Virus record (IMG/VR): IMGVR_UViG_3300009165_000006
Length of the DNA: 64,000 bases
From: a virus
Strand: one strand, 5' to 3'
Shown here one piece after another: positions 14,105 through 52,607 of this stretch; within the stretch, counting starts at the first letter, position 1; every line of letters starts with the position of its first letter. A program made the translations under genes and the position numbers. The notes under the pieces were generated by a model, which was not told the origin of the DNA, searched no databases, and saw nothing but the letters and a program-made list of their open reading frames with translations.

Positions 14105-15250
14105 ATGAAACCTACAGTAGCAGTTATCTCCTTAGTTCTCCAAGCCACAGCCCTAACAGCCTATGCACATCCGGCTTGTCACGGACAGTTACAGGGGGCC
14201 ATCAACACTCCGGCAGATGATTCCGTACATTGCCCGACGGTATGTGATCCGACTGGATGCCAATGTGATCCCACTCAGCTCTCCCCCTATAGCCTCGAGT
14301 GGTGGTACTGGACGGGCCACCTGAAGACACTGAGTGGTCGCAAGTTTGGGTTCTCGAACATCGTCTACACGGGGATCGACCTCGTCACCTACCTTCCACT
14401 CACATGGTCGGACAGTACGGTGGCCGACCTTCGTAACGGCACGTTCAACTATGGTGGACGAGAAGCTATTCTCGGGTTGCCGACGAAGGTCCCCAACGGA
14501 TTCGAGTTCACTTTCCCTCACTCGCAGGTCTTTGGGGGTAATGGAACTGATGCGATCCACTCAGTGATCGTCGACCAAACCTCGGGCAAGCGGTACGAAG
14601 TGGATCTGGCGATTCACTCGGTGAAAAAGCCGGTTCAACAGCGTGCCGATGGACTCGTTTACTACTATTCCCGCGAGCAAATGCTTGCAGTCGGAGCCAT
14701 CGTTATCGATGGGATACCCCAGATCGTAACGGGAACCGTCTGGTTCGACCATCAGTTTGGGGATCAACGAGACGCTTACCAGAATGTCACCACGTGGCAG
14801 TGGTTCGGGATCCAACTCTCGGGCAACCGGCAGCTCGTCCTCTACGACGTCCAGGTGAACGAGAACGAGACTCGCCCCGAGTACGCCTCCGGAGTCATCG
14901 AAGGGACCTTCACGGATCCCAACTGCGGAGTCACTCACCTGACCCGGAACGACTTCACCATCACGCCCCTTGGTAGCTGGCAGTCGGCTTGGATGCCCCC
15001 AGGCTGGGGTGACTTCCAGTGCATCTACCCGATGGGGTGGAGCATCCAAGTCCCCAGCAAGGGGATTGACATCACCGTGGATCCCTACTTCGATGCCCAG
15101 GAGATCATCGCCCCCTTGCCGGCTCCTGAAGGCACATTGACCGTTGGTGACCGGTATTGGGAAGGGGATGCCGCGGTGACGGGTAGCGATACCGGTGAGG
15201 CCTTCGTGGAACTCACCGGCTTCTGCCCATTTGCCCCAGGATCTAACTAG
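14105..15250 (+). CDS. secreted AttH/CrtC-like (lipocalin-like) protein
   Basis: GGAAGGAA RBS. Signal peptide MKPTVAVISLVLQATALTAYA. Blocks EWWYWTGHL, VWFDHQFG and WQWFGIQL resemble the hydroxyneurosporene synthase/AttH family. Confidence 0.6.
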   Translation: MKPTVAVISLVLQATALTAYAHPACHGQLQGAINTPADDSVHCPTVCDPTGCQCDPTQLSPYSLEWWYWTGHLKTLSGRKFGFSNIVYTGIDLVTYLPLTWSDSTVADLRNGTFNYGGREAILGLPTKVPNGFEFTFPHSQVFGGNGTDAIHSVIVDQTSGKRYEVDLAIHSVKKPVQQRADGLVYYYSREQMLAVGAIVIDGIPQIVTGTVWFDHQFGDQRDAYQNVTTWQWFGIQLSGNRQLVLYDVQVNENETRPEYASGVIEGTFTDPNCGVTHLTRNDFTITPLGSWQSAWMPPGWGDFQCIYPMGWSIQVPSKGIDITVDPYFDAQEIIAPLPAPEGTLTVGDRYWEGDAAVTGSDTGEAFVELTGFCPFAPGSN

Positions 15251-16598: not shown

Positions 16599-17345
16599 AT
16601 GCCTCAGCTAACAATTGAACAGCAAATCCGATATGAGCGTCACGTTAGGCTGCCTGAAGTCAAGGAAGCTGGGCAGATCAAACTGCTTCAGAGCAAGGTC
16701 CTGCTCATAGGGGCGGGCGGGTTAGGATCCCCAGTAGCGCTCTACTTAGCCGCCGCAGGGGTCGGTACCTTGGGGGTCGTGGACTTTGATTCGGTTAGCC
16801 TCTCGAACCTCCAGAGGCAGATCATCCACTCCACCGTCGGAAAACTCAAGGTCCCAAGTGTCACAGAGGCGGTGACCCGGTTGACCCCTGACGTATCCAC
16901 CGTTGAGTATGTCGGTCGCGTGGATGCCTCGACCATAGATCAGATCTTCGAGATTGGTTGGCACGTGGTCATTGACGCCGTGGATAACCTGGAAACTCGG
17001 TACCTCATCAACGAAGCTTGCGTAAAACGTAAGCTCCCATGGATCCACGGGGCCGTTTTCTCGTATGAGGGTCAAGTGACAACCTTCACCCGGGGCGGCC
17101 CCTGCTATCGATGCCTCTATCCAGATGTGCCCCCCAAAGGGGCTGACAAGCCCGGTGGCGTCCTTGGAGTTGTCCCAGGCGTGATAGGTACTATCCAAGC
17201 AACAGAGGCGCTCAAGGTCATCCTGGGGCTCGGACAGACGTTGGAAGGGACGATGCTCAACTACAACGCTCTCTACATGTCCTTCGACCGAATGCCGCTT
17301 GGAGCTCGCAACCCAAACTGCTCAGTTTGCTCGATGACTTACTGA
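16599..17345 (+). CDS. ThiF/MoeB/HesA-family E1-like adenylyltransferase
   Basis: RY.RH..L...G...Q..L..S.VLLIGAGGLGSPVALYLAAAGVG (nucleotide-binding loop), SNLQRQ, Zn motifs CYRC and CSVC. No Cys in the crossover loop (DVPPKGADKPGGVLG). Confidence 0.9.
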   Translation: MPQLTIEQQIRYERHVRLPEVKEAGQIKLLQSKVLLIGAGGLGSPVALYLAAAGVGTLGVVDFDSVSLSNLQRQIIHSTVGKLKVPSVTEAVTRLTPDVSTVEYVGRVDASTIDQIFEIGWHVVIDAVDNLETRYLINEACVKRKLPWIHGAVFSYEGQVTTFTRGGPCYRCLYPDVPPKGADKPGGVLGVVPGVIGTIQATEALKVILGLGQTLEGTMLNYNALYMSFDRMPLGARNPNCSVCSMTY

Positions 17346-17551: not shown

Positions 17552-17811
17552 CGGACGTCCTCCGGGAGCTTCTCGTACTGGATCTCGCAAGCCTGCTCAT
17601 AGGTCAGGGCAGGTTCAATCTGGCCTTCGAGACGAAGGCCGATAGTACACGATTTGTTGATGGCGTAGCAGGCTAGACTCTCCATGACCTTGCGAGCGTC
17701 TTTCCGGTCACCAAGGAAGAGGCCGGCCTCTTCCTTGGTGGTAACGTGCCACTTCGACCAAAAAGCTCGAAGCTCGTCTTGAGTCATGGCCTCGAGGTTT
17801 GTGAGTTCCAT
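17545..17811 (-). CDS. hypothetical protein (intact copy of duplicated module)
   Basis: 88-aa ORF preceded by the TGCGTAATAG motif. Paralog of 15906..16167. Confidence 0.65.
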   Translation of the reverse strand: MELTNLEAMTQDELRAFWSKWHVTTKEEAGLFLGDRKDARKVMESLACYAINKSCTIGLRLEGQIEPALTYEQACEIQYEKLPEDVRW

Positions 17812-17816
17812 ACGTT

Positions 17817-17826
17817 CTATTACGCA
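17817..17826 (-). promoter_or_regulatory. TGCGTAATAG start-proximal motif
   Basis: Minus strand reads TGCGTAATAG AACGT ATG (ATG at 17811). Confidence 0.45.
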
Positions 17827-17887
17827 CGATTGGGGTGAAACTCAACAAGCAATTGTCTGATTCCTAGGATTGGTGTAGGGTTGAAGC

Positions 17888-18202
17888 ATGGAATGTATTG
17901 ACCAGTCAACTTTGAACTCTGAACCAGATCTCGGAACTATCGCGCAGTTGAATCACGAGGGGGATACGACGTACACGTGGGACAAAACGAATGAAAACGA
18001 GTGCCGGGCCGCCGAGGCACACTTCAACCTGTTGAAGTCGAAAGGATTTCTCACCTTTAAGGTGAAACGTAGTAGACGTAAAAGTCCGGAAGAAGCATTT
18101 GATCCGAAAGCAGGCAAGTACGTCTACGTGGCCCCCGAAATAGCGACCACCCTTGACCCCAAGGCGGACTACGTAGTGACACCACAGATGCGAGGCGGGT
18201 GA
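17888..18202 (+). CDS. hypothetical protein
   Basis: 104-aa ORF, ATG start. Confidence 0.55.
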   Translation: MECIDQSTLNSEPDLGTIAQLNHEGDTTYTWDKTNENECRAAEAHFNLLKSKGFLTFKVKRSRRKSPEEAFDPKAGKYVYVAPEIATTLDPKADYVVTPQMRGG

Positions 18203-18264
18203 TGGGTAGTAGAACTACCCAGTGGATTCCTGAATCAGAACTTAGCCTTAGCAGGAGATAACTT

Positions 18265-18612
18265 GTGCATCTCCTCGTAGGCGTTCTTGATCCAGGTGAG
18301 ATCCCCATTTATGAGTTAGAAGGGGCAGAGCATAGCTATCAGTGGGATGGGGCCTCCAATTTTGCCAATGGAGGAATCTGGGACATCAGGCCCTTAACAG
18401 TCAACCATAGAGTCATAATCAGCTTAGGGCTTGATGAACCACTGACCGTTCTCGTTGCCCAACTTTCAGATCGCCTTCAAGCGTTACCTCAACCACTGGA
18501 TGGTTCCTTGATTCTGTCTATCAGGTCCGTCTATTCTGTTGATGGGGTTACTAATTGGGAATCAGGTCCAGATCAGCATGGGATCTGGATCGTGGGGGTT
18601 TGGCCTTTGTAG
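18265..18612 (+). CDS. hypothetical protein
   Basis: 115-aa ORF with non-ATG start. Weak. Confidence 0.35.
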   Translation: MHLLVGVLDPGEIPIYELEGAEHSYQWDGASNFANGGIWDIRPLTVNHRVIISLGLDEPLTVLVAQLSDRLQALPQPLDGSLILSIRSVYSVDGVTNWESGPDQHGIWIVGVWPL

Positions 18613-19220
18613 AACGAGCCTACACGGGCATAGATCTCGATGGGCAAGATCCAAGCTATTTGATTGAGCAGACGTGCTTGCTTATCGCCGGCAAGGATTA
18701 CGATAGAAACATACCTAGACTTGAAGCTTGGAGGGTTCGTCTCGAAGAAGAAAGGCGCGAGAGGAAAGCCAAGCGTGATAGTGTTGAAGCAAAAGCTCGA
18801 GCTATCCTAATGGCCCATCTCGATGAAACCCAAGTGTCTGAGTTCGAATCCTCTGGATCCTTCCACGTCCTTGGTGCCGATGGTTACACCTATCTCATCA
18901 CCTCCAGGGAACAACACAATGTGTTTCGAATCGAGGAGGGACGTCGAACCTTCGAGTACTGCATCGTGACAAGGGATTTCGTACCCCTTCAGGATCAGAT
19001 GCTGACTCAAATGCTTCTCTTGACGACCCATCCTGCGATGTTTCATCAAATCGCGAACACCTGGGAAATTAGAGAAGATGGGACCCGCATCCGCATAGCA
19101 GGGCGACTAGTTGACGTTCTTGAGAACCCAGCCGCCCAAGTCGGCTGGGTTCTCAAATCTCCTTACCGGCAAGTATCTCTCTGTACATCGGGCCTAGCAC
19201 TTTTGAGACACTCCCCTTGA
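18555..19220 (+). CDS. hypothetical protein (start uncertain)
   Basis: 221-aa ORF with TTG start. The 3' end runs through the 19120-19156 stem-loop and overlaps the ligase gene end. Confidence 0.45.
   Translation: MGIRSRSAWDLDRGGLAFVERAYTGIDLDGQDPSYLIEQTCLLIAGKDYDRNIPRLEAWRVRLEEERRERKAKRDSVEAKARAILMAHLDETQVSEFESSGSFHVLGADGYTYLITSREQHNVFRIEEGRRTFEYCIVTRDFVPLQDQMLTQMLLLTTHPAMFHQIANTWEIREDGTRIRIAGRLVDVLENPAAQVGWVLKSPYRQVSLCTSGLALLRHSP
19120..19156. terminator. perfect 15-bp stem-loop at the convergent gene junction
   Basis: TTGAGAACCCAGCCG (19120-19134), loop CCCAAGT, CGGCTGGGTTCTCAA (19142-19156). It includes the ligase stop codon. No U-tract on either strand. Confidence 0.4.
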
Positions 19221-20094
19221 TGCTCTGCTCGGTAGCCCCGAGTTCGGTCATCTCCCGTTGGCAATCCTTGGCCAGGTCTGCGCAAACCGTGGTCAAGATC
19301 AATGGCATGTCCTTCATGGTATGGGTTAATTCAACCCCTCGGTCGTTAAGGCGTCCGACGGCGTTGATGACTCGCCCCTTCGTGACGTACTTGACGATGA
19401 AGTCATCAATCGGAGAAGGACCCCTTGGAGTTTTCTCTTTGGCGGCGGATGCAACTTCAGCGAACTTGGCGCATTTATGCTTACAGATTAGCCAGTTTCC
19501 AAACACGTTTCGGAGAAGAGGATTCGATCGGATGACCACCCCCTCAGCGATGTTGTCATCCCCAAAACCATTGATCTTCCCAACCGTGCTGGGTTTTTCT
19601 AAGAGCGCATCGAAGTTTGCCTGAGTCGGCTCCCCTCGCCACACCTCGGGTATTACAGGTAGCTCCATCTTGGAGCAAAGCTCGATGAACAGGTCGTAGG
19701 TGACAAAGTTCTTGGCCACCATGATGTCGAAGGCTCTGAAAAGAGGCTCCTGACCACTTGAGTATTGAACTCCCTTGGTTTTGATGCCGGGACCGTGAGC
19801 TTCACCAAAAACGGTGACTTCAGAGAACCCGTAGGACTTGATGACCTCCATCATCCTTGTTAGAAGGTCCTTCTGGGCTTTGAACTTGTTAAGCATGCTC
19901 CCGAGCGGGAAGTTCTGCCCAAGTTGATATTCGACGTCACGTGAACCATAACCAATCTCTTCGATGCTTTTCATCCCGAGTGGGAAAAAGAGACGAAAAT
20001 TCGAACCGTGGATTTTCTCGAGGGCAACTACTTCCCTGACAGAAAAGATCTCTGGGCAGTCGGAGAGTTGAACGATTGAAGGGTACTTTTCCAT
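19153..20094 (-). CDS. Rnl2-family RNA ligase
   Basis: Motif I EKIHGSNF (T4 Rnl2 has EKIHGTNF), VFGEAHGPGIK (T4: VFGEFAGPGIQK), AEGVVIRS, ICKHKCAKFAE (T4: IKCKNSKFSE), plus a C-terminal Rnl2-like domain. Confidence 0.88.
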   Translation of the reverse strand: MEKYPSIVQLSDCPEIFSVREVVALEKIHGSNFRLFFPLGMKSIEEIGYGSRDVEYQLGQNFPLGSMLNKFKAQKDLLTRMMEVIKSYGFSEVTVFGEAHGPGIKTKGVQYSSGQEPLFRAFDIMVAKNFVTYDLFIELCSKMELPVIPEVWRGEPTQANFDALLEKPSTVGKINGFGDDNIAEGVVIRSNPLLRNVFGNWLICKHKCAKFAEVASAAKEKTPRGPSPIDDFIVKYVTKGRVINAVGRLNDRGVELTHTMKDMPLILTTVCADLAKDCQREMTELGATEQSIKGSVSKVLGPMYREILAGKEI

Positions 20095-20193
20095 TGGATC
20101 CTGTATAAATCCACGGATAGGTACTCCAATCCCTTGGCCAAGTCAACATAATGTTGACTTTCTTGATATACCCTGACACCTTGGACTACTACT

Positions 20194-20529
20194 ATGTCAA
20201 AAGACGAATGTCCGGCTGAGGATAGACTGATAATAGGTCCAGATCTTGGGGATGGGTCGCATTCGTGCGTGAGGCATACTCCAGATCACAAGATCCACGT
20301 GGGTAGAGTCCAACCTTTGAGAGATGGGCAATCGATCATTGGGGACCAAGAGATTCTGATGGTGAAGTACGATTCCCAGCAAGGAGACTTTTTGGTACGA
20401 ACTGTATACAATCCTCGTCATCAAGGAGAAGAGTCCAACACCTCGAAGGGCCCAGCCAAGGTCACCAGCGACGCTTATCGAGCCGGCTACGACCGTATCT
20501 TCGGCAAGACTTCGATCGGAACAGCTTGA
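20194..20529 (+). CDS. hypothetical protein
   Basis: 111-aa ORF, ATG start. TACCCT box about 21 nt upstream. Confidence 0.55.
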   Translation: MSKDECPAEDRLIIGPDLGDGSHSCVRHTPDHKIHVGRVQPLRDGQSIIGDQEILMVKYDSQQGDFLVRTVYNPRHQGEESNTSKGPAKVTSDAYRAGYDRIFGKTSIGTA

Positions 20530-20598
20530 TGAGCTGGTTCGGTGTAATCACCGATAGTGTCTCAGGAGTTCAAAAACCCCAATGGGTTTGATCGGTTT

Positions 20599-20639
20599 GA
20601 TCAACTTTGACTAGCTTTGGAGTCAACTGCTACTACCCT
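20599..20639 (+). repeat. 41-nt element, copy A (second copy at 46707..46747)
   Basis: GATCAACTTTGACTAGCTTTGGAGTCAACTGCTACTACCCT versus GATCAACTTTGATCAGGTTTGGAGTCAACTGCTGCGACCCT: 5 mismatches in 41 nt, counted by eye. Confidence 0.7.
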
Positions 20640-20665
20640 GATCGATACAAGCGAGAACCCATGAT

Positions 20666-20869
20666 ATGACTTTCTCCGAAGCCCTTGTTCACCTCAAAGC
20701 TGGTCGACAGATTAAGCGCAAGGGGAGTGTTGTTTGGCTGCATATCGACAAGTACGGGCACATCCGGGAATTGGACTTTGCCTTTGGATTTCCAGACTCC
20801 ACACTCTGGGTACCAACCGAAGAGGACATCTTAGCCGAGGACTGGGAAATGCGCGAAGTTACCAGCTAA
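20666..20869 (+). CDS. DUF2829-like small protein (Tad2-like fold candidate)
   Basis: MTFSEALVHLKAGRQIKRKG...LWVPTEEDILAEDWEM matches the DUF2829 pattern (M.F.EAl..lk.G..v.R.gW ... p...DllA.DWe). Confidence 0.6.
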   Translation: MTFSEALVHLKAGRQIKRKGSVVWLHIDKYGHIRELDFAFGFPDSTLWVPTEEDILAEDWEMREVTS

Positions 20870-20931
20870 ATAGCTCATTGACACATAGTACTTAAATTAA
20901 CACTACCCTCAATTTACACAAAAGGTATCGT

Positions 20932-21561
20932 ATGTTCTTCTGGTTCGGATTGGCCCCTTGGATCTGGGGGTTTGAATTTGTACTGTTTGTAGGGCTTATT
21001 GTGCTAGTCGAATTCGAGTTCTACAAGTGGTCCACCGCAACCCTCATAGGAGCTCTCGTACTGAGTCACTTCCTGCATGCGTTCTCAGTAGTGGATCTAG
21101 TAAGGCATAACCCTGGAACCTCCTTTATCGTAGTCCTGAGCTATTTCCCTGCGGGCACCATATGGGCAACCTTCAAGTGGTTCTTGTTCCTCTATCGGTT
21201 CAAGGACGCCAGGATGGATGCCTTGGATGAGTTCCATGATATTCAGGAAGCGGCTCGAGCTCGAATCGCTTCGGGTGCTGTCTACACAATGGATGAGGAG
21301 TTGGTCAATAAGACGGATTACCAGTATTTGCGTAGCCAATACTTCAAGAAGACCAACCTTTCGAAGATCCCACGTGTCCGTGACTACAAGAGGAAGGTTA
21401 TCGGTTGGATTGCGTTCTGCGTGTTTTCGATAGTTGGCACTATCTTCCACGACCTGGTTCGTAGGATCGCACTCTGGATCTACAATCGAGTCAGCAGTTT
21501 CCTTCAGTGGATGTCAAATCGGATTATCTCCGAGGTGGAAGAAATACCTGAAAAGACCTAG
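20932..21561 (+). CDS. membrane protein
   Basis: 209-aa ORF with several hydrophobic helices (FFWFGLAPWIWGFEFVLFVGLIVLV, ...). Confidence 0.65.
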   Translation: MFFWFGLAPWIWGFEFVLFVGLIVLVEFEFYKWSTATLIGALVLSHFLHAFSVVDLVRHNPGTSFIVVLSYFPAGTIWATFKWFLFLYRFKDARMDALDEFHDIQEAARARIASGAVYTMDEELVNKTDYQYLRSQYFKKTNLSKIPRVRDYKRKVIGWIAFCVFSIVGTIFHDLVRRIALWIYNRVSSFLQWMSNRIISEVEEIPEKT

Positions 21562-22451
21562 TGAACCAAGGTTCGCTCGAAGGCCTCGTTGTTGAGCACA
21601 ATCATGATGGAGGGTGGATCCGGAGCGTTCGCTTGACGAGTTGACTCATCGTACTCGTGGCAACCCCACTCACCCTTCTCCATGTAAGGTTGAACTCTTA
21701 CCCATGTTCCGATACTTGGATCAATGGCTGCAGCAGCCGCTATTGTGTCGTGAAGGGCCTTCCCCTCTGGGCGCTTTTTGAAGTAAAAAGCCATCCCTTC
21801 CTTGATGAGGTCAAGCCCAGCATGGGCTCCGGAAGGGATTCTCTCATTGACCATAGGACCCCAGAAGACACCGTGACAAACGTTCTTGGAAACCATCCGT
21901 CGAGTCCAGATAGGTGAGTTTTTACCCAGTAAACCGAGGGCTGCTTTCGAGTCGCCCCCAAGGTTGAAGGTCGGACAGGTGAGCTTGCCGGCGAACTTGG
22001 GTAGCCGGTGTTCGGGTGGGACGATGTTGTCTCCGGCGAAGCCACCCTGGCAAGTCCACGTACGGAAAAACGGCCACACCTCACTGCTAGCCTTCCAGAT
22101 GTTGGTGAGGGCCGCTCCAGTGATTAGGTGGGTGGTTGGAAAGTCCAGTAGTACCTGCTTAATGACCTCAGTGGCGCTTCCCTGGGGCTGACAGGGGGAG
22201 ATCTTCCCAAGCCAATCATAGTGGAACTGGGACACCTTAGAAGTTTGCTTCTTGAGGCTCCCAATTCCGATAGGCACGTCCGTCCGCCCAAGACGATCGA
22301 GGACATGACGAACTATCCCGACCTGGTCGAAACCTCCTGGATGGATCGTAGCCCCAACGAGTTTGGCTCGGGGATGAGTAGCAAGGAGCGCTAGAGTGAA
22401 CACGTCATCTGGGTCACTCGTTTCCATGTCGAACAGATATTCTTGAGTCAC
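21558..22451 (-). CDS. nucleoside hydrolase-like (IU-NH family) protein
   Basis: N-terminal DMETSDPDDVFTLALL resembles the D.D...DD motif. ALHDTIAAAAAIDPSI resembles the family's LHD..A...a.dP block. GTG start. Confidence 0.6.
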   Translation of the reverse strand: MTQEYLFDMETSDPDDVFTLALLATHPRAKLVGATIHPGGFDQVGIVRHVLDRLGRTDVPIGIGSLKKQTSKVSQFHYDWLGKISPCQPQGSATEVIKQVLLDFPTTHLITGAALTNIWKASSEVWPFFRTWTCQGGFAGDNIVPPEHRLPKFAGKLTCPTFNLGGDSKAALGLLGKNSPIWTRRMVSKNVCHGVFWGPMVNERIPSGAHAGLDLIKEGMAFYFKKRPEGKALHDTIAAAAAIDPSIGTWVRVQPYMEKGEWGCHEYDESTRQANAPDPPSIMIVLNNEAFERTLVH

Positions 22452-22514
22452 TTGAAATCAATCTCAGGTTATAGGAGTGGCTGCCACCTAAATTTCGATG
22501 GTGTATCAGCTACC

Positions 22515-23456
22515 ATGCCCTCTTCGTTGAGTAAAGCCCAAGCTTGTCTGCTGTGTCATGTGGTCGGAGACTCCCTTGGGAGCCTCGTAGAGTTCGAGTC
22601 CGAGGAGACCATCCTTCAGGAGCACCAAGGAGAAAAAGTGCGCTACCTCGCTGATGGGGGCACCTGGGAGACCTTGGCGGGGCAAGGCACAGACGATTCC
22701 GAAATGGCCATCACCCTAGCTAGGACTCTCATTCACCATGGTTTTTACAGCTCAACCATTATGCGGAGTATGTATTGCTATTGGCTCAATAGCCAACCAT
22801 TTGACGTTGGCAGGACCACTCAAAATGGACTCCTGGATATGCCTGACTTCCACAGCCAAGCCAATGGGGCTTTGATGCGTGTCGCCCCCTTGGGGATCTT
22901 TGGAGCGAAGAAGAAGGACTGGAGAAAGACCATGATCTGGGCGATGGAGGATGCCCTTATTACGCACCCAAATCAAATATGCTTACAAATCAATGCACTT
23001 TATGTATCGATGATCGATCAAGCAATCGGAAGTGATGCAAGCCCAGATCAACTCTACGGTGCGCTGGCCGCAACAGCAGTGGATATGGAAGCCCATCCAG
23101 TTATCCTCGAAGCTATCGACCGAGCTAGAACTGCCCCACCGGAAAACTACATGGTGAATATGGGTTGGGTTGTCCTCGCTTTCCAGAATGCGCTCTATCA
23201 ACTACTACACGCCCCGTCATTGACTGAAGGAATTGTCGATACCGTCAATCGCGGAGGTGATACCGATACCAACGGAGCAATTGCCGGTGCTCTGCTTGGG
23301 GCTGTTTACGGGATGGAGCAAGTCCCCAAGGATTGGATCGATGGAGTAACCCAATGTTGCCCATCGGTGACCAACCCCTACTCTAGAAAGCCACGTACAG
23401 GCTTCTTTTGGACTAATGATGTGCTAGAAGTAGCCAAAAAACTACTTGATAGTTGA
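22515..23456 (+). CDS. ADP-ribosylglycohydrolase family protein
   Basis: GDSLGSLVEF, GTDDSEMAITLA and GGDTDTNGAIAGALLGAVYG are classic DraG/ARH motifs. ATG at 22515 within track ORF 22443..23456. Confidence 0.85.
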   Translation: MPSSLSKAQACLLCHVVGDSLGSLVEFESEETILQEHQGEKVRYLADGGTWETLAGQGTDDSEMAITLARTLIHHGFYSSTIMRSMYCYWLNSQPFDVGRTTQNGLLDMPDFHSQANGALMRVAPLGIFGAKKKDWRKTMIWAMEDALITHPNQICLQINALYVSMIDQAIGSDASPDQLYGALAATAVDMEAHPVILEAIDRARTAPPENYMVNMGWVVLAFQNALYQLLHAPSLTEGIVDTVNRGGDTDTNGAIAGALLGAVYGMEQVPKDWIDGVTQCCPSVTNPYSRKPRTGFFWTNDVLEVAKKLLDS

Positions 23457-28169: not shown

Positions 28170-28682
28170 ATGGTCCTTTTCCGCGATATCCCCCTGTTCC
28201 CTCGGGCTCACTACGAGATCGACGTGGATTGGAACTTCCTCGAAAAGTTCATTAGCAATGCCATCAAAGAGGACGGGCTCAACCTTGACCCCGACTTCCA
28301 ACGAGCCCACGTGTGGACTCGGGAACAACAGGTGGCCTACGTCGAGTACATCTTGAAGGGTGGCGAGGTAGGCCGTAATCTAACCTTCAACGCAAAGGGT
28401 TGGGGGTACGATCTTGTAACCGGGTCGTATGAGATCGTGGATGGAAAGCAAAGGCTCGAAGCGGCTCGAGCCTTCCTTCGGGATGACTTTCCAGTCTTTG
28501 GGCACTACCGATCGGAGTATACGGATCGGATGCGGCTCCACGCTGGCTTCAAGTGGCGGATTTGCTCCCTCGAAACTCGAGAGGAAGTCCTCCAACTCTA
28601 CCTCAATATCAATGCCGGTGGGACCCCTCATACGCAAGAGGAACTTGACCGAGTTCGCCACATGCTGCGTTCACGTTCATAG
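28170..28682 (+). CDS. DUF262 (ParB-like/GmrSD N-terminal type) domain protein
   Basis: DPDFQRAHVWTREQQVAYVEYIL and IVDGKQRLEA match the DUF262 FQR..vW / DGQQR blocks. No DUF1524-type nuclease half is present. Confidence 0.6.
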   Translation: MVLFRDIPLFPRAHYEIDVDWNFLEKFISNAIKEDGLNLDPDFQRAHVWTREQQVAYVEYILKGGEVGRNLTFNAKGWGYDLVTGSYEIVDGKQRLEAARAFLRDDFPVFGHYRSEYTDRMRLHAGFKWRICSLETREEVLQLYLNINAGGTPHTQEELDRVRHMLRSRS

Positions 28683-30542: not shown

Positions 30543-30669
30543 TCTGATTGTCTTGACCGGGGAGCTGAACTCGTTCGAAAGTTTCACTTTACTGGCTATC
30601 TCGAATAGTGTAGACCCGAACCCCACAAAAAGGGCAGGGTGTCTAGGATTCGAGTAGAAAGGAACGAGC

Positions 30670-33301
30670 ATGGCCGAAGGTAAGAAGGAACTAGTACTAG
30701 TAAACAACGAGTTTGCATGGGTGAAGGATCTGTCAGGGGGTATGATTTGTGTATTGCGGTCCCCACAAGGAGCCGCTATCCGTAGACTCTGTGATTGTGA
30801 TCCAGAATGCGAATAGAGAGTTCGTTCCGATCGGTGGGGACCAACTGAAGGGGCAGACTTTCGTCCAAGCTCTGGAATCCCAGTACATCATCCTACACAA
30901 TCCCGAGACTCCCGGTGCTCGACTGATGACTCGAGGGAAGAACGAAGCCATAGCTCTCCAAACCGGTAAGTGCATCGTCAAACGTGGTCCATGCGAGTTC
31001 CCTCTTTGGCCTGGTCAGCAAGCGGAGGTTGTTGACGGCCATCGCATGACTTCGGACCAGTTCCTTCGAATTCGAGTAGTGGGGGAAGTGGCTCCTGACG
31101 ACGTCAAGGCTCTTCAGTTGTTACTCAAGGAGGACTGGCTCACCTCAAAGCCCATGCCTCAGCCCGTCAAAGCCGAGGAGCCTGCGGGTCTTTTCATCAT
31201 GGCCAGTGCATCCAAGGATCCGGAACCCGTAGAGGATGAGGTCAAGCTACCCGAGCTAACCATCGGCTCTGAGTGGATTGTCCGCGGAATGAAGACCAAG
31301 TTCTTCATTCCTCCTACTGGGGTTACGGTCCTCCCTGCTAATGACCGTGTGACCATAGGGGAAGACCCTTATGTGATGAATGGCGTTCCGCTCGATGCTG
31401 ATGAGTACGTCATTCTGAAGAACCGCAGTGGTCGAATCAGCTACGTTCTAGGCCCAACAACAGTCACCCCCTGCGAAGACCAAGAGTTTCAAGAATCTAA
31501 CAGTGGGTCTCACAACCCAGTCTTCAAGGCCCAAAGTATCGACGAAAACAGCGGTGTTCTACTCCGAACCCTGTTCCCGATGACTCGCAAGACGATCCAA
31601 GAACGTATGGGCTTGGATGTTCAAGTCCAATTTACTCCAATTGCCAACCCCAATGAGGACGGAGAGGAAAGCGATAGGAGAACACCTTCCTCTGATGAGG
31701 TATTACCTCCAGGGACTCAACTTGTCGTTTGGCGGGAGAAGCGATTGGTCTTCCCGGCGGATGGTATCCAGATCATCAAGAAGTTTGAGGCCATCCACAT
31801 TCTAGCGGGTACTGCTCGGTACGTGAAGAACTCGCTGACGGGTAGAACTCGAATCGTGCAAGGGGAATGTCTATACCTAGCTGATCCCCGATGTGAGGAG
31901 TTCACCAGCCGTCGTCTGACCAAAGAGATGATCGGACTCTGGCTTCCGGGGCAAACCTTCGAGACTTACAACCCCGAACTGGTTCCCTGCATTACCGTTC
32001 CTCAGGGTACGGCCGCCATGATCCTCAAGCGAGGAATTGGCTCAAACACTCGCAAGACCATCATTGGTTATGCCACTTACTTTCTGGAGTGGGACGAGAC
32101 CCTCTGCGAGATGAAGCTCTCGACCTCGCGGGGTGGAGAAGCCAAGACCTATCAGAATGCAATCAAGATCTGCTACCTCTGGATGAAGTCCAATCGAATT
32201 AACGATGCTCTACTGGATGGACGTACCCGGGAGGATTGTGAGTTCTCGATCCAATACACCCTGACGGTTGACTTCGAGGAGGAGCACAATGACTCCTGGT
32301 TCAACGTCGATGACTATGTGTTTCTCGTCTGTGAAGAGGTTCGCTCACGTCTACGCGGAGGTCTCCTTGCTACCTCCATCAGCGAATTGTCCACAAACTA
32401 CGTCGAGATCATCCGAGACATAGTTCTCGGCATGAAGCCCAGTGTACCGCTTAAGAGTGAAGACCCACTAGCCAGGCTAGAAGCCTATACCATACCTCAC
32501 CGCCCAGGAATCGAGTTCCCGAGGTTCGGAGCTCGACTGGTCGACATCAACATCAATGCCTTCAGTATTCGAGATCCAGAACTGCAGGGGCAGCTCCGCC
32601 AACTTCAGATGGCGGGGATCAACGAGTCTGTTCGAACTCGAACAGCTCAGATCATCTTAGATGGGGCTCGAATTCGAGCGGAGATTGAGAGGAACCAAGC
32701 CACCCTTGCCACGGAGACCACCAAGTTCAAGAAGGGTCAGGAGCTTATAAACACTGAGGTGGCTGAAGAGACCACTCGTAAGAAAGGTCAGCAAGAGCAT
32801 CAAACGGCCCTTGCTTACTTGGAAGCGGAAAAGGCTCGGTTATTGGCTGAAGCAAGTAAGAACCTTGAGGTAGCTGCGAAGAATGACGAGCTATCGAAAT
32901 CTCAGCTAACTACTCAAGCTACTCTTGCAGATCTTGGACTCAAGATCACCGAGCTCAAGAAGCTGACTGATCTTGCAGTTCTCGAAGTAACTAGCAAGAA
33001 TATGGAGCTCAAACGTCAAGACGAAACCGAAAAGGTGAAGGCAACTGCCGAGGCCGCTGCTATCGTCAACAACTCGGTCTTACCGACTCTCGGGGCACAC
33101 CTGGCGGAGATTCGAGACTCCCTCGTTGCAGACAAGCTGGTTAGTGCCTTCGGTGCAGCGGCAAGCTTCCGAGGCGTGGAAGTCGTCGAGCTTGCTGCTC
33201 AGACCCTCAGCTCGTTACCCGGTTTGGGATCTGTTCTTGGTCGACTACGTCGGAATCCTTCACGGAATGAAGGCCAGGGTAGCCCTCAAGCGACTAGATA
33301 A
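30670..33301 (+). CDS. major vault protein (MVP)-like protein; N-terminal 26 codons in a different frame (+1 shift near 30746-30752)
   Basis: Track ORF 30749..33301 (GTG start). QYIILHNPE...CEFPLWPGQ parallels MVP [9 protein letters not shown]...DPFPLYPGE. The shoulder-like DDYVFLVCEEVRSRLRG and the long C-terminal coiled coil parallel the MVP shoulder and cap-helix. ATG 30670 ORF (MAEGKKELVLVNNEFAWVKDLSGGMI) aligns with the MVP N-terminus. Confidence 0.75.
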
Positions 33302-33304
33302 TCA

Positions 33305-33607
33305 CTACTCGGTGGGCTGAATCATAGCCCCTTCGGTATTCAGTACTGAGGGGGCTGTTGGTCTCTTACCTCTACAACACTTGCAACCCTTCTGCTTAAC
33401 TAGGTTGTTCGTCTGACGTACACTGACCGTCACGATGGCCCCACAGACGAGACAGAGAGCCTTCCAGAAGGACCAGTCAGCATTCGGTCCCTCTCCAGCG
33501 ATCTTGATCAGCTCGTAGGGGCCGAACACTTCCCCCTTGTGACGTTTCCTCGGGTCATAGTTTCTCTTGAGAATAAGGGGTTTTCTCTCATCTGTGGACA
33601 TCGACAT
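33305..33607 (-). CDS. Cys-rich hypothetical protein
   Basis: 100-aa ORF. CLVCG...CKCC motifs. Confidence 0.55.
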   Translation of the reverse strand: MSMSTDERKPLILKRNYDPRKRHKGEVFGPYELIKIAGEGPNADWSFWKALCLVCGAIVTVSVRQTNNLVKQKGCKCCRGKRPTAPSVLNTEGAMIQPTE

Positions 33608-33652
33608 GTGTGCTTACTACACCAATTGATGTGATGTCGAATCCGGAGACCT

Positions 33653-34033
33653 ATGTCCGAAAAACTAGTAATCCCTGCTAAAACTGAACTGATTGTTCTC
33701 CCCGCGGATGCCCACGAGAAAAGGACCTTTGGGTTCGTTGTGCACGAATGGAATGGAGTTCCTCTTCATTCCATTCTCGACGGCAAGATTGTGAAAAAGC
33801 CCGTACCCACAACCGAAGATCTGGTTGTAGGTCATGACTATGCAGCCTGCGGCCTCAGTGGCTATCTGCTCTGGACCGTTGGCAAGGATGCCGATGGAGA
33901 GCTCCACATCACCTGTGGGCCCTACCTGATTGGGTGCCTTGAACGTGGCAGGGATGAGCGCAATTGCTGGGTGGTCACCGGGATGATCAATACTCGGGGG
34001 CTCACGAAGATTAAGAAGGCTTATTCAACTTAG
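33653..34033 (+). CDS. hypothetical protein
   Basis: 126-aa ORF, ATG start. Confidence 0.6.
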   Translation: MSEKLVIPAKTELIVLPADAHEKRTFGFVVHEWNGVPLHSILDGKIVKKPVPTTEDLVVGHDYAACGLSGYLLWTVGKDADGELHITCGPYLIGCLERGRDERNCWVVTGMINTRGLTKIKKAYST

Positions 34034-45249: not shown

Positions 45250-45520
45250 TGAACCTCGATAAGAACTATCGCACGCCTTGACTCCAGTGACGAACTGTGA
45301 ACCGCTTCAACCACTCTTACGCGCGAGCTTGTCTGAATCTCAACTAAATTGAGTATAGCCTTCCAAAAGACCGTTCTGTGAAACTTATTCAAAGTTGCTC
45401 ATAGGAGAACTCCGATGTTCACTTCCTGCTTCAACGAGACATGACTCGTAGGCCGAAGGGTTCTCCTTCGTTCCGCCGCTAGAGGACTCTCCACAGGCTT
45501 TTTAGCGCCGAAGGCGCCTA
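45250..45520 (-). ncRNA. predicted omega RNA (reRNA) region of the TnpB element
   Basis: By analogy with IS200/605 TnpB loci, the guide RNA scaffold overlaps the tnpB 3' end and the right end. The 154-nt non-coding stretch after the stop contains the hairpin CTCAA-CTAAA-TTGAG (45339-45353). Boundaries are not determinable by eye. Confidence 0.35.
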
Positions 45521-46643
45521 GGTTCCTCGGGAACTCCGAGTACCTTTCCAAATTCTTCGCCGCATTCTCATCTCGATCATGAATAGCTCCACATCCTTCA
45601 CAAACCCACTCTCTCACAGAAAGAGCCAGCTGCGGCCGTTTAAGGCCGCAGCTGGTACATATCTTCGAGGATGGGAACCATCGATCAGCTACTTCTAGCT
45701 TAGATCCATACCAAGTGGTCTTGTAGGAAAGTAGCCTCTTACTTTCAAACCACCCTTGGTCCAAGATCGACCGAGAAAGGTGAGGATTCTTACTCATTCC
45801 ACGAATACCAAGGTCTTCCACAACGATGGCTGACTTGGTTTTCGCCAGCCCCGTTGTGAACTTATGAAGGAAATCCCTTCGAACGTTTGCTACTCGTGAG
45901 TGAATCCTCGCTAATCTTTGAGCTGATTTCCTCCTATTTGACGAACCCTTACGCTTCCTCGAATGAGAGCGTTGAGCCCTTCTTAACCGACTTAACGCTT
46001 GTTTCAATGGATTCGGGGCATGTATCTTCGTACAGGCCCCGTCCGAAGAGACCGTAGCGAAAGTAAGAATCCCTAGATCTACCCCAGCTTTTGGTCCTTG
46101 GATAGGAATAGGATCCGTCACGACCTCAACGGTATTGACGGATACGAACCATCGATCTGCTACCCTCGAAATCGTAGCTGAAAGGATCTCCCCACTAATC
46201 CTGCCGTTGATCTTCTCTTTGGTTCGAATAGTCCCAAGCCTAGGGAGCTTAATATACCTAGTTTGTGGCTCAATTGAACCATAGAGACGGAAGGAATCCT
46301 TTGATTTATGCTTCTTTTTGAACTTTGGGAAGCCAACTCCTTCTGATCTTCTGGACCAGAAAGCTTTGAAAGCTTTGTCAAGATCACGAAGAGCTTCCTG
46401 AGGGGCACACTTGGAAACCTCGTACATCCAAGGGAAGTCAGGGCCCTTGCGGGCGTTGAGGTCCCGATGTTCAGCGATGGCGTTGGTGAACTTCTCCTTA
46501 CCTTCTTGGGTTCGGAAGCGTTCGATCCTCCTTTGGAGGGACCAATTCCAAGCGAAGCGAGCCGTTCCGGCATGCTTCGCCAAGAACGTCCGAACCCGAT
46601 TGTTCGGATCTAACTCGAACTTATACGCCTTCCGAAGTTCCAT
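45399..46643 (-). CDS. tnpB: TnpB (IS200/IS605 OrfB-family RNA-guided endonuclease)
   Basis: MELRKAYKFELDPN...FLAKHAGTARFAWNW (OrfB N-terminus), RuvC-I GVDLGILTFAT, RuvC-II AIVVEDLGIRGM, Zn finger CTSCG...CEGCG, RuvC-III HDRDENAAKNL. Confidence 0.92.
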   Translation of the reverse strand: MELRKAYKFELDPNNRVRTFLAKHAGTARFAWNWSLQRRIERFRTQEGKEKFTNAIAEHRDLNARKGPDFPWMYEVSKCAPQEALRDLDKAFKAFWSRRSEGVGFPKFKKKHKSKDSFRLYGSIEPQTRYIKLPRLGTIRTKEKINGRISGEILSATISRVADRWFVSVNTVEVVTDPIPIQGPKAGVDLGILTFATVSSDGACTKIHAPNPLKQALSRLRRAQRSHSRKRKGSSNRRKSAQRLARIHSRVANVRRDFLHKFTTGLAKTKSAIVVEDLGIRGMSKNPHLSRSILDQGWFESKRLLSYKTTWYGSKLEVADRWFPSSKICTSCGLKRPQLALSVREWVCEGCGAIHDRDENAAKNLERYSEFPRNLGAFGAKKPVESPLAAERRRTLRPTSHVSLKQEVNIGVLL

Positions 46644-50291: not shown

Positions 50292-51218
50292 GTGCTAGCA
50301 ACAAGAAAATGCGCATTCGACTCATGCGAGATAGAGTTCGAACCAACACATCCATACCAACAATACTGCTGTACTAGGTGCAAGGAGCGCGCTCGTTGGC
50401 ATCGTTCAGAACAGATTGAAAAATCCAAGAAACGCAGCCAAAAGTGGTACTCCGATCCGGAAAATAAGCTCAACCACAGGGTAGCTCGAAGGGGTAGACG
50501 CATGTCAGTAAAAACTGGTAGAGGTGAATGGGAGATGCCAGCCCCAATGATCGAATACCTACCGGGCGGATGCGTCCCGATTGCTATTGAGTGTGGGTAT
50601 AAGTTCGAACATTGGCAACTTGCATCACTTCACGGAATGATGAGTACGATCACTGGACCTCACTCAGCCAACAACCCAGTATTTACACTGTTTCCGTGGC
50701 ACATAGGGTGCGGATGGGCCGCGTACATTCGAGATATTGAGTTAGCCAGATCGATTGCCATGCGTACACACGTGGTCAACTTCAATGACCGTGAGCAGGA
50801 ACTCGCTCTAGGATGGCTCGTACGTGTCAAAGCACCACAGATCAAGCCAGGTGCTTGGAAACTTCGAATCACAACTATTACACCTGTGTGTTGTCGCGCA
50901 ACTGGAGGGACTTATTACATGGCTCCAACTGCGAACAACATCAAAGGGACTCTTGAGGTAAACGTTGCACGAAGGCTTGGAATAAAGACTGAGAAACACG
51001 ACGTTCAGGTCAGATTGCTTGACTCAAAAGCCTTCTTAGACAAGCTTCGACTATCTGGCAATGGCAGCAAGCTTGGTGACATTTGTGGGTGGTCTGGAAG
51101 CATCGACATTGAAGTGAATGCGCTTGGTAGGCTTCTGCTTGAATGTGCCGCCCTCGGCATGGGATTGGGAGGCAAGTTGGCGTTTGGATTTGGGCGAATC
51201 AAGGTAGAGACAATATGA
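50292..51218 (+). CDS. Cas6-like RAMP protein with N-terminal zinc-ribbon extension
   Basis: The C-terminus GMGLGGKLAFGFGRIKVETI is the glycine-rich loop typical of Cas6/RAMP C-termini. N-terminus CAFDSC...CCTRC. GTG start. First gene of a 6-gene operon. Confidence 0.55.
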   Translation: MLATRKCAFDSCEIEFEPTHPYQQYCCTRCKERARWHRSEQIEKSKKRSQKWYSDPENKLNHRVARRGRRMSVKTGRGEWEMPAPMIEYLPGGCVPIAIECGYKFEHWQLASLHGMMSTITGPHSANNPVFTLFPWHIGCGWAAYIRDIELARSIAMRTHVVNFNDREQELALGWLVRVKAPQIKPGAWKLRITTITPVCCRATGGTYYMAPTANNIKGTLEVNVARRLGIKTEKHDVQVRLLDSKAFLDKLRLSGNGSKLGDICGWSGSIDIEVNALGRLLLECAALGMGLGGKLAFGFGRIKVETI

Positions 51219-52387
51219 GGCCCTCGCCAAGTCAGCTGCTTCACAAAGCAATAGGAAGCCCGCGGGTTGACGGGTGCTCGGAGGCAAACGGTCTTTGCTA
51301 CGTTTGCGCAGGTCCTGTAGTTCGAGGAAAACCCGTTGTCGACTGGTGTACTTCAAGTTACACAGATCAGAATCGTGCGCGTTGTCCTGCAGCAATTTAC
51401 GTCTGTGAGGCATGTTGCATGCTTGCTGCACGTACTTTTCCAGTCCCTGGGCGCCCGCCAGGACAGTGTTCGGTTTGCGAGGGAACCGGAACTGTGAAAA
51501 AGATTCCTCCCAAGGGCAAAGGAAAGGCGTCCAAGATCGGAGACGCTTGCCCTAAGTGTGGTGGTACGGGCGAAGCGTCGTTCGGTGGCAACTTCCGCAA
51601 TTACAGCCACCTATATGAGGAGGGGTGGGATTCACCGTCACTTCCGGATGGAACCGTGATCCCAGGCTACCTGAACGCATCAAAGGGAGAAAAACCGATC
51701 GTGCTTAACTTCCTAAGGCGTGACCACCACGGCATGTGGTTCGCTGCAATCGCAGACAGTGGACAGAAGCATGTGGTGCATCATACACCACCGAACCTGC
51801 TCGGTCCAGGCGGAACGGTGCTGTTCGAGGAGACGCTTGTTAGCATCCCACCAGGTCTCTCGCTGGTAGACGAAATGACAGCACTTCTCACCGCTGGAGC
51901 AACAAAGGAAGAGATTCTCATCGGAGAATATAGCCAGTTCACATGGCTGCGCTTGGAGACAGCAATCCGTGAATTTGAGGGTCGTAACGCGAAGCGGCGG
52001 CATACTGGGTGGTTTCGTTTGGCGCTATGGCTATCTCAACGAGATGAGGCAGCAGTAGCTATAAGGATTGAAGCCGAGAAGGCAGCAGAGAAAGAACGTA
52101 AGGCACGGACCAAACAGAGAACCAAGGAGACTCAAAGTGTTGAAACAGGAAGAAAGAAAGCATCTCGAAACACTTCTTGTCGAGATGCTGTTATCGATCC
52201 GAGACCGGTATGTGAAGGACAAAGGGGGGAAGGTAAAGCCGGACTACCTCGAACAGATCCAAAACCGAGCCAGAACAAGTGCAGAAATGTCACCGACCAT
52301 CAATCGGTGGGTGAACGAGCTTCAAATAGACCTACAAATGCAGAGCATCGACACGTGGGGCAGCTCAGCCTCTTCAACGCTCCTTGA
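51215..52387 (+). CDS. Csf1-like (type IV Cas8-like) zinc-finger large subunit candidate
   Basis: ATGA overlap with the upstream stop. N-terminus CYVCAG...SSYTDQN...VCEACC has the Csf1-like CxxC..FTD-like..CxxC layout. Inserted DnaJ-type CSVCEGTG...CPKCGGTG. The last ~85 codons are low-complexity and overlap the next ORF. Confidence 0.45.
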   Translation: MRPSPSQLLHKAIGSPRVDGCSEANGLCYVCAGPVVRGKPVVDWCTSSYTDQNRARCPAAIYVCEACCMLAARTFPVPGRPPGQCSVCEGTGTVKKIPPKGKGKASKIGDACPKCGGTGEASFGGNFRNYSHLYEEGWDSPSLPDGTVIPGYLNASKGEKPIVLNFLRRDHHGMWFAAIADSGQKHVVHHTPPNLLGPGGTVLFEETLVSIPPGLSLVDEMTALLTAGATKEEILIGEYSQFTWLRLETAIREFEGRNAKRRHTGWFRLALWLSQRDEAAVAIRIEAEKAAEKERKARTKQRTKETQSVETGRKKASRNTSCRDAVIDPRPVCEGQRGEGKAGLPRTDPKPSQNKCRNVTDHQSVGERASNRPTNAEHRHVGQLSLFNAP

Positions 52388-52607
52388 TCTAGTAAGCTTC
52401 TGCGACGAACACTCGTGCCACAGAGAAGCGAAAATGATGGTAATTCGCGATGGTGCGTTCTTGTTTGCATTGCTCCGCAAACAGATCGAACTTCGCAAAG
52501 AAGAACGGGAGCGAGAGAAGCAGGAGCGAATCCTTGGGAAACTTACCAAGGAAGACATGTTGGCAGCAGCAGAAGAGAATGGATTGTTAGTTGAGGAAAC
52601 GGCATAA
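52137..52607 (+). CDS. Cas11-like small subunit candidate
   Basis: GTG at 52137 preceded by AAGGAGA (6-nt spacer). About 156 aa, helical and charged. Sits between the large-subunit-like and Cas7-like genes. Frame is +1 relative to the upstream ORF. Track ORF 52068..52607. Confidence 0.4.
   Translation: MLKQEERKHLETLLVEMLLSIRDRYVKDKGGKVKPDYLEQIQNRARTSAEMSPTINRWVNELQIDLQMQSIDTWGSSASSTLLDLVSFCDEHSCHREAKMMVIRDGAFLFALLRKQIELRKEEREREKQERILGKLTKEDMLAAAEENGLLVEETA

Follow-up and report, generated by a model that had tools for sequence, protein, structure and literature searches.

Vaults are among the largest particles of eukaryotic cells, and there is no agreed function for them. The vault shell is closed and two-halved, with 39 major vault protein (MVP) chains in each half (a 78-mer), and its companions are TEP1 (which carries TROVE, NACHT and WD40 domains), PARP4 and vault RNA. 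In the rat vault structure, the first MVP repeat (R1) makes the waist contact between the two half-vaults. An MVP-family gene is described here from a 64,000-nucleotide stretch (the window) of the IMG/VR virus record IMGVR_UViG_3300009165_000006, where an 850-codon open reading frame (ORF) carries the body of the protein and the first codons of the gene lie upstream in another frame. Sequence profiles and a predicted structure support this ORF as a genuine full-length relative of MVP with putative repeats, shoulder, cap-helix and a small helical C-terminal domain. Taken as a whole, the locus is very probably an MVP-family gene of a divergent subfamily with a real 2-nucleotide (nt) deletion at codon 27, and a cage is proposed for the intact protein from homology.

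Homologues of MVP have been described outside the eukaryotes. For bacterial homologues PMC12962969 cites Daly et al. 2013, and Sokolskyi (bioRxiv 10.1101/872010) described them as well; the lineages are Myxococcales, Cytophagales and Oscillatoriales. Asgard homologues have five repeats (PMC12962969). Two gut phages, Caudoviricetes ctOa11 and ct2Ri15, encode MVP homologues for which a capsid role was discussed and largely discounted (bioRxiv 10.1101/2023.11.10.566534). At the gene level, therefore, the statement in an earlier note on this DNA that vaults are eukaryotic does not hold, and the novelty of a viral copy was overstated. The literature searched contains no demonstration that an MVP homologue from a prokaryote or a virus forms a particle. 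The window gene is a new divergent member of these described prokaryotic and phage homologues and not the first viral vault protein. What is new is its setting in Patescibacteria and large phage-like elements, together with an allele-specific frameshift.

The domain order of the window protein is that of eukaryotic MVP (human, rat and rabbit; PDB 4V60, 4HL8, 7PKZ, 9BW5 and 9R86) and its length is similar, including a cap-helix equivalent of about 168 residues compared with about 160 in the eukaryotic protein. Identity in structural alignments is about 15-17%. Unlike eukaryotic MVP, the window protein is not matched by the Pfam repeat models, contains two disordered insertions and is found in a prokaryotic or viral genomic setting. 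The ctOa11 and ct2Ri15 proteins are full-length MVP-like proteins of unknown function encoded outside structural gene clusters, as are those of the window clade, but the window clade resides on much larger, uncatalogued elements and the window copy is frameshifted. A clade of 820-amino-acid (aa) proteins bearing Vault_3 (alignment A5), which is not equated with the two gut-phage proteins, can be aligned with the window clade from one end to the other and is about 24-28% identical to the window protein, and Pfam recognises the window clade by the shoulder alone. The bacterial and Asgard homologues resemble the window protein as prokaryotic proteins that combine repeats, a shoulder and a cap-helix, with no particle demonstrated. 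They belong to different lineages, and the five Asgard repeats contrast with the full MVP length seen here, a distinction drawn from published descriptions. The cage-forming SPFH proteins (HflK/C, flotillin, prohibitin, stomatin and erlin) lack the approximately 480 additional N-terminal residues that the window protein has as predicted MVP repeats, and the window protein has neither an evident membrane anchor nor a match to Pfam Band_7.

Membership of the MVP family is indicated by both profile and structure searches. The Pfam model MVP_shoulder (PF11978) matched the window ORF at aa 492-564 (E 3.1e-9); its 37.3 bits exceed the gathering score of 25, and 30 of 30 clade members were matched too. 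When all PDB sequences were searched with phmmer, MVP chains were the sole matches; the best, human MVP (E 1.9e-5), aligned residues 556-834 with residues 512-790 of the query, a span that covers the shoulder and cap-helix. A profile of 30 close relatives (alignment A3) matched MVP in the PDB at E 2.4e-16, pairing profile positions 355-753 with MVP 367-794, and this alignment extends back into the putative equivalents of the last MVP repeats. An AlphaFold2 monomer model of the ORF (53-sequence alignment, mean pLDDT 77.8) is beta-rich to about residue 475 and continues as an alpha/beta domain to residue 607, an unbroken helix at 610-777 and four short helices. Foldseek ranked full-length MVP chains from the PDB 1 to 12 (E 2.8e-31 to 6.6e-26, 780-930 aligned columns), followed by murine MVP R1-R7 fragments (3gnf, 3gng and 3gf5; E 2e-11 to 7e-10, target TM 0.51-0.55). 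SPFH proteins (flotillin, prohibitin, erlin, stomatin and HflK/C) first appeared at rank 17 with partial coverage. Comparison of the window clade with the Vault_3-bearing MVP clade by hhalign gave a probability of 100% and E 1.7e-102 over 750 columns, starting at residue 1.

The N-terminal array may hold about eight or nine repeats, a number estimated from length and strand count and not domain by domain, and its two disordered insertions fall at aa 133-161 and approximately 300-320. The C-terminal helices contain a conserved block (...NASILPTLGAHL..IRDSLV...FRGM.VVEL in alignment A3). When the bases were re-read, the coordinates and both peptide strings quoted in the earlier note proved correct, and the ORF listing contains the 850-aa ORF as that note described it, with a GTG start. 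The MVP architecture that it proposed is borne out by profile and structure searches that match MVP over the whole length, repeat array included, and thus go beyond generic SPFH or coiled-coil similarity. Its shoulder or SPFH-like segment agrees with the Pfam, phmmer and AlphaFold2 results, and its long C-terminal helix resembling the cap-helix corresponds to the predicted helix. The description of the N-terminal half as repeat-like is upheld by the fold matches to MVP R1-R7 but not by self-comparison of the sequence, which is considered below.

The native start of the gene lies upstream of the 850-aa ORF. An ATG at 30670 opens a 48-codon ORF in a frame neighboring that of the body, and 25 of the 26 residues specified by its first 26 codons are identical to the N-termini of the intact relatives P0002 and P0092 (MAEGKKELVLVNNEYAWVKDLSGGMIYVYCGPHKEPLS). 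These codons, which the earlier note had aligned with the MVP N-terminus, are thus the true N-terminus of the MVP-family protein, and in intact relatives they encode the first two strands of R1 and the beginning of its third. P0092 (locus L016) has 877 aa, is about 99% identical to the window protein and falls in the same 90% cluster, while P0002 (locus L001) is 90% identical. In DNA alignments the window reads ATGATTTGTG where the intact relatives read ATGATTTACGTG. Alignment A6 sets ATGATTT--GTGTATTGC in the window against ATGATTTACGTG in L016 and ATGATCTACGTG in L001, and the same window string also stands against ATGATTTACGTGTATTGC in L016 and ATGATCTACGTGTATTGC in L001. The lesion is therefore a 2-nt deletion that breaks a conserved Tyr codon. 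Removal of a single T from the run at 30746-30748, as had been suggested, does restore the frame, but an extra T is not the true lesion. The bases around the site are ...TCA GGG GGT ATG ATT TGT GTA..., and the body frame from G 30749 reads GTG TAT TGC G.... The sequence AGGGGG at 30735-30740 is located 8 nt upstream of the GTG at 30749.

JGI sample 3300009146 contains a 6.7 kb contig, L017, that has the same gap and differs from the window at 2 of 6705 nt (99.97% identity). The strain in that sample was assembled as short contigs alone (L017 and the 22.9 kb L019), so that this assembly is independent of the one that gave the 102 kb contig with the window proteins. Additionally, a 751-aa gene call (P0093) is on record for two contigs, one of them 99 kb long. 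L017 and the record of P0093 on the 99 kb contig thus speak for the 2-nt deletion as a real allele. The window allele does not have an intact frame past codon 26, whereas P0092 and P0002 do. Standard translation of the window allele cannot yield the full-length protein, which has 877 aa in the 99%-identical sibling. When intact P0002 was modelled, five strands (6-10, 14-20, 26-30, 33-37 and 41-46) were predicted within its first 50 residues at pLDDT 85-90, while the first 40 residues in the model of the 850-aa ORF are at pLDDT 43-69. By these models the deletion removes about 2.5 strands of repeat R1. The body differs from L016 at 9 synonymous and 4 nonsynonymous codons and the rest of the ORF has not decayed, so either the lesion is recent or a product that starts at the GTG is still used. 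The window allele is thus either a recent null or the source of an N-terminally truncated product from GTG 30749, and no full-length protein is expected from it. Nucleotide identity between the siblings is 98.7% across the MVP region (30638-34013 in the window, 9969-13352 in L016) and 92-95% in the flanks, which suggests stronger constraint on the region or a recent exchange of the segment.

Relatives of the window protein are widespread, and its own subfamily is small. A word-indexed search found 90 relatives in three groups: a close clade at 61-100% identity on contigs of up to 435 and 443 kb, a group at 42-47% identity over the full length that includes Candidatus Uhrbacteria proteins, and a large set at 24-31% identity with Vault_3 and MVP_shoulder. 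When 1.84 billion representatives were searched exhaustively with a profile, the result was 950 clusters (defined at 50% identity) at E <= 1e-3 and 445 at E <= 1e-30. Only six clusters make up the window subfamily, all above 950 bits, and the next cluster scored 420 bits. The window gene belongs to a small divergent subfamily common to Patescibacteria (Uhrbacteria) chromosomes and large, ORFan-rich, phage-like elements.

The Patescibacteria genes (Candidatus Uhrbacteria metagenome-assembled genomes; P0021-P0041, L012-L014) are the nearest relatives beyond the element clade and fall within the same six-cluster subfamily. In the loci of this 42-46% clade that were taken from GTDB genomes (L012-L014), the neighbors include rpsB, tsf, ksgA, pgk, gap, groEL and yidC, and in three of three a release factor is encoded no more than 10 kb from the MVP gene. 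These housekeeping neighbors show that the loci are cellular. In contrast to the window copy, the Patescibacteria genes stand among housekeeping genes, some have an insertion of about 150 aa, and no neighbors are shared. The ribosomal protein S2 beside the L014 MVP gene is identical or closest to Candidatus Uhrbacteria/Patescibacteria entries; the records of L012 (CAYQCK010000003.1) and L014 (CAZSQN010000001.1) are titled 'uncultured Gammaproteobacteria', and these labels look wrong. Small genes downstream of MVP in the Patescibacteria loci were considered as operon partners and rejected, as they are unrelated.

More distant homologues are found in phage genomes. A scan of IMG/VR with the single protein P0002 gave no match, and an alignment-based pattern scan returned eight contigs (13-395 kb) with homologues at 24-30% identity. 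Among the genes beside them on these contigs are those for a Gp23-type major capsid protein, family A DNA polymerases, VapE, 5-hmdU DNA kinase, DNA ligase and primase. A tblastn search of INPHARED matched published genomes of megaphages, LR756500.1 (462 kb) and LR756501.1/LR756503.1 (735 kb). The first encodes an intact, unannotated homologue of 827 aa (L018 9905-12388; MVP_shoulder E 4.5e-27, Vault_3 E 6.5e-7), and the other two have an unannotated homologue at 17566-19521; LR756501 and LR756503 have been termed megaphages (PMC9723777). These are full-length MVP-like ORFs in huge phage genomes, but they are 27% identical to the window protein and belong to the Vault_3-bearing clade. In the literature searched, no paper connects MVP with huge or jumbo phages or mentions the homologues in LR756500.1, LR756501.1 and LR756503.1. 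In BFVD, the 802-aa 'prohibitin domain-containing protein' A0A3G5A4K1 of Harvfovirus sp. aligned to the model over 861 columns (E 1.8e-11) and is a candidate for an MVP-like protein from a eukaryotic giant virus.

The element that carries the window gene has few recognizable genes. Crude gene calling gave 107 ORFs covering 87% of the 64 kb, about 20 of which have any Pfam family, leaving about 80% without one. No tRNA was found in the window, none of its ORFs is a housekeeping gene, and Rfam models at gathering score identified no family across the 64 kb, vault RNA included. PHROG matches comprise transposases, dNMP phosphatase, RNA ligase and unknowns. Exact look-ups of the MVP ORF, the 608-aa ORF and a 485-aa ORF of the window matched no recorded protein, and an exact 60-mer taken at the end of the window had no match in metagenome_contigs. 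Between approximately 19 and 45 kb, gene order agrees with that of L016, the 120 kb sibling contig, and also with that of L002/L003 (part of the 443 kb contig), in the latter case at 25-77% protein identity. Eight concatenated window ORFans had only three sporadic matches in INPHARED, to megaphages and one actinophage, and the CCA-adding enzyme of the window is at most 42% identical to any catalogued phage copy, which indicates that the element is not close to any known phage. Relatives of this enzyme at 52-80% identity recur on contigs of 341-465 kb, including contigs of 435 and 226 kb that carry MVP relatives; genomes of the element family may accordingly be about 0.4-0.46 Mb in size. Named relatives of the enzyme are scattered among Lentisphaeria, Bryobacteraceae and Deltaproteobacteria, in contrast to the MVP gene, whose relatives indicate Patescibacteria. 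Scans for promoters and terminators gave no more than shuffled sequence would, and Shine-Dalgarno motifs were weakly enriched upstream of the crude gene calls (22 of 107, compared with 13.7 ± 3.3 at random). The gene content, the collinearity and the sizes of related contigs fit a family of huge phages or of some other giant extrachromosomal elements.

Several results weigh against assignment of the window gene to a vault-like system. None of the Pfam vault repeat models (PF01505, PF17794, PF17795 and PF17796) matched the window ORF at E <= 1, and among 30 relatives Vault_3 was seen in 9 (best E 1.4e-4) and Vault_2 in 2, always below the gathering score. Self-comparison by hhalign gave off-diagonal E values of 0.02-0.2, which are not significant. 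The model superposes poorly on MVP as a whole (pTM 0.53, TM-scores of about 0.45-0.54), as would be expected of a long flexible rod. No TEP1/TROVE, vWA or PARP4-like family was found among the window ORFs and no vault RNA by Rfam in the 64 kb, and no gene neighbors are conserved across clades, sharing being confined to the close clade. Given the negative Pfam and self-comparison results, the repeat architecture rests on the predicted structure and on collinearity with the Vault_3-bearing clade. A generic SPFH/band-7 protein with a coiled coil and only superficial resemblance to MVP would nevertheless have to account for SPFH matches that span about 200-450 columns of the C-terminal part alone, while alignments to MVP chains cover about 800 columns and have E values better by 20 orders of magnitude, for a clade that is collinear from residue 1 with Vault_3-bearing MVP homologues, and for an ORF that is matched by MVP_shoulder and not by Band_7 (PF01145); this explanation is scarcely credible. 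The frameshift has likewise been weighed as a sequencing or assembly artefact masking an intact 877-codon gene, a view to which the adjoining short T run, the otherwise flawless ORF and the intact 99%-identical sibling lend some weight. It is nonetheless improbable, as the identical gap recurs in a separately assembled contig from another sample record that differs by 2 single-nucleotide changes, the 751-aa gene call is repeated on a further 99 kb contig, and loss of 'AC' is not a homopolymer-length error. Alternatively, programmed +1 ribosomal frameshifting at AUU-U, stimulated by AGGGGG as in prfB, could yield a nearly full-length product (…GGMI-VYCGPHK…). The window site AGGGGG-UAUG-AUU-U-GUG is superficially like the prfB site, AGGGGG-UAU-CUU-UGA. 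However, AGGGGG belongs to conserved Ser-Gly-Gly codons that are equally present in intact relatives, and the spacer is 4 nt and not 3. Judged from the sequence, the A site would hold neither a stop nor a rare codon, the next codon being an ordinary UGU, and re-pairing of tRNA-Ile on UUU would have a first-position mismatch. The product would also lack the conserved Tyr inside a beta strand, and no relative requires frameshifting, so recoding is very improbable.

The viral nature of the carrier is probable but less secure than the identity of the gene. The description of the element as phage-like in the earlier note is plausible, and it has to be set against the absence of any capsid, portal, terminase or tail gene among the 107 window ORFs by Pfam and PHROG. 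The carrier could instead be a plasmid-like giant extrachromosomal element or an ORFan-rich cellular island. This would agree with the missing structural genes, with the two TnpB genes in the window and with the chromosomal location of the closest non-clade homologues in Patescibacteria. The IMG/VR pattern scan, with patterns that fit the clade motifs, returned relatives at 24-30% identity alone and no clade contig, the 443 kb one included, which again weighs against a virus. A nonviral carrier is harder to reconcile with 64 kb that have no housekeeping gene or tRNA and whose ORFs are about 80% familyless, and with accessory genes typical of phages (Tad2-like anti-Thoeris protein, RNA ligase, CCA-adding enzyme, dNMP-phosphatase PHROGs and GmrSD_N-like protein). 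Moreover, the sporadic best matches of the window ORFans are to megaphages and one actinophage, relatives recur on 341-465 kb contigs, and more distant MVP homologues have genes for Gp23 capsid and DNA polymerase as neighbors in IMG/VR phages, and occur also in 462-735 kb megaphages. The nonviral explanation is therefore the less likely one, although it is the strongest of the alternatives, and a virus is the preferred carrier.

Table 1. Features of the MVP-family gene and other genes in the 64 kb window
Feature	Position	Strand	Remarks
48-codon ORF	30670..30816	+	Frameshift remnant: 26 native codons and 22 out-of-frame codons, then TAG
First 26 codons of the MVP-family gene (MAEGKKELVLVNNEFAWVKDLSGGMI)	30670..30747	+	Out of frame with the body
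Frameshift site	30745..30751	+	Ancestral ...ATT TAC GTG... became ...ATTT GTG... in the window
Body ORF, 850 aa	30749..33301	+	MVP-family protein minus its first 27 residues; GTG start at 30749, TAA stop at 33301
Beta-rich N-terminal array, predicted MVP repeat domains	30749..32173	+	ORF aa 1 to ~475
Shoulder (SPFH-like alpha/beta) domain	32174..32569	+	ORF aa ~476-607; Pfam, phmmer and predicted structure
Cap-helix equivalent	32576..33079	+	ORF aa 610-777; one continuous predicted helix (~168 residues)
Four short C-terminal helices (predicted), then disordered tail	33089..33250	+	ORF aa 781-834; at the MVP cap-ring position
TnpB-like ORF, second and weaker	115-1572	+	
CrtC N-terminal lipocalin and Lipocalin_9 protein	14105-15250	+	E 5e-12 and 3.5e-24
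ThiF/E1-like protein	16599-17345	+	Pfam E 2e-72; adenylation domain matches many PADLOC 'E1-E2' models
RNA ligase	19153-20094	-	
Tad2-like anti-Thoeris protein	20666-20869		
Inosine-uridine nucleoside hydrolase	21558-22451	-	
ADP-ribosylglycohydrolase	22443-23456		
GmrSD_N-like protein	28170-28682	+	Also PADLOC NsnA / PD-T4-2_A, E 1e-9 to 1e-7
IS605-type TnpB, complete	45399-46643	-	OrfB_IS605 and Cas12f-like TNB domain; phrog_506 E 1e-106
CCA-adding tRNA nucleotidyltransferase	58123-59478	+	
608-aa ORF, no family match	60181-62007	-	HELGH (HExxH) zinc-protease-like motif in translation

The recognized genes of the window are those given a family in Table 1, together with a response-regulator receiver and a radical SAM enzyme. 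The cluster at 19153-23456 looks like a counter-defence island for NAD/ADP-ribose and RNA repair, and it is kept in sibling contig L016. The GmrSD_N-like protein is 77% conserved in the 443 kb contig, where it is encoded upstream of that contig's MVP gene. PADLOC-DB contained no match for intact P0092 or its immediate neighbors. A co-directional block at 50292-55701 encodes proteins of 308, 414 (Cys-rich), 327 (phrog_22746), 217 and 486 (radical SAM) aa and may be a RAMP/type IV-like module. A protein identical to the 217-aa one in L019/L020 has a precomputed match to Pfam PF27782 'Csf3', and the Pfam scan performed here gave no such match. The CrtC/lipocalin protein is an unusual gene for a phage-like element.

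The clade protein in its intact form keeps all of the MVP modules and the conserved C-terminal helices, which makes homo-oligomerization its most likely activity. Eukaryotic MVP assembles by lateral contacts among its repeats, shoulder and cap-helix, and SPFH relatives form closed cages with the same shoulder-plus-helix module, as seen in PDB assemblies among the Foldseek matches. Like MVP and SPFH proteins, copies of the intact protein would associate laterally, with shoulders and cap-helices in contact, and the oligomer would be a cytoplasmic cage of vault-like or half-vault form in the host or infected cell. By analogy, assembly of the intact relatives into such a shell is a credible but tentative proposal. 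A truncated form that starts at the GTG would lack two to three strands of R1, the domain that joins the vault halves at the waist in eukaryotes.

The human shoulder domain binds ADP-ribose (bioRxiv 10.64898/2026.05.01.722283), and PDB 9mxj is among the Foldseek matches of the window model. In the window, the MVP gene has three genes 7-10 kb upstream of it, for the Tad2-like protein, the nucleoside hydrolase and ADP-ribosylglycohydrolase, the last of them at 7 kb; ADP-ribosylglycohydrolase is not a vault component. A link between the MVP homologue and NAD/ADP-ribose biology is only a lead.

The broadest form of the proposal is that uncatalogued phage-like elements of about 400-460 kb, the IMG/VR phages and the 462-735 kb megaphages encode MVP homologues that assemble vault-like cages during infection. 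This is doubtful, and less likely than self-assembly of the intact clade proteins as such. If true, it would mean that bacterial cells can contain a virus-encoded nanocompartment that is not a capsid, one possible use of which, in view of ADP-ribose binding by the eukaryotic shoulder and of the Tad2-like and ADP-ribosylglycohydrolase genes nearby, would be to sequester host factors or nucleotide-derived immune signals. Prokaryotic viruses would then have invented or acquired vaults before the eukaryotic organelle arose or in parallel with it. The 950 clusters, with the unannotated megaphage copies among them, show that MVP-like genes occur in metagenomes far more often than one would judge from the few cases described. 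The frameshifted window copy is the poorest candidate for expression, whereas its intact siblings P0092 and P0002 are tractable candidates for learning whether 'bacterial vaults' exist and whether phages use them.

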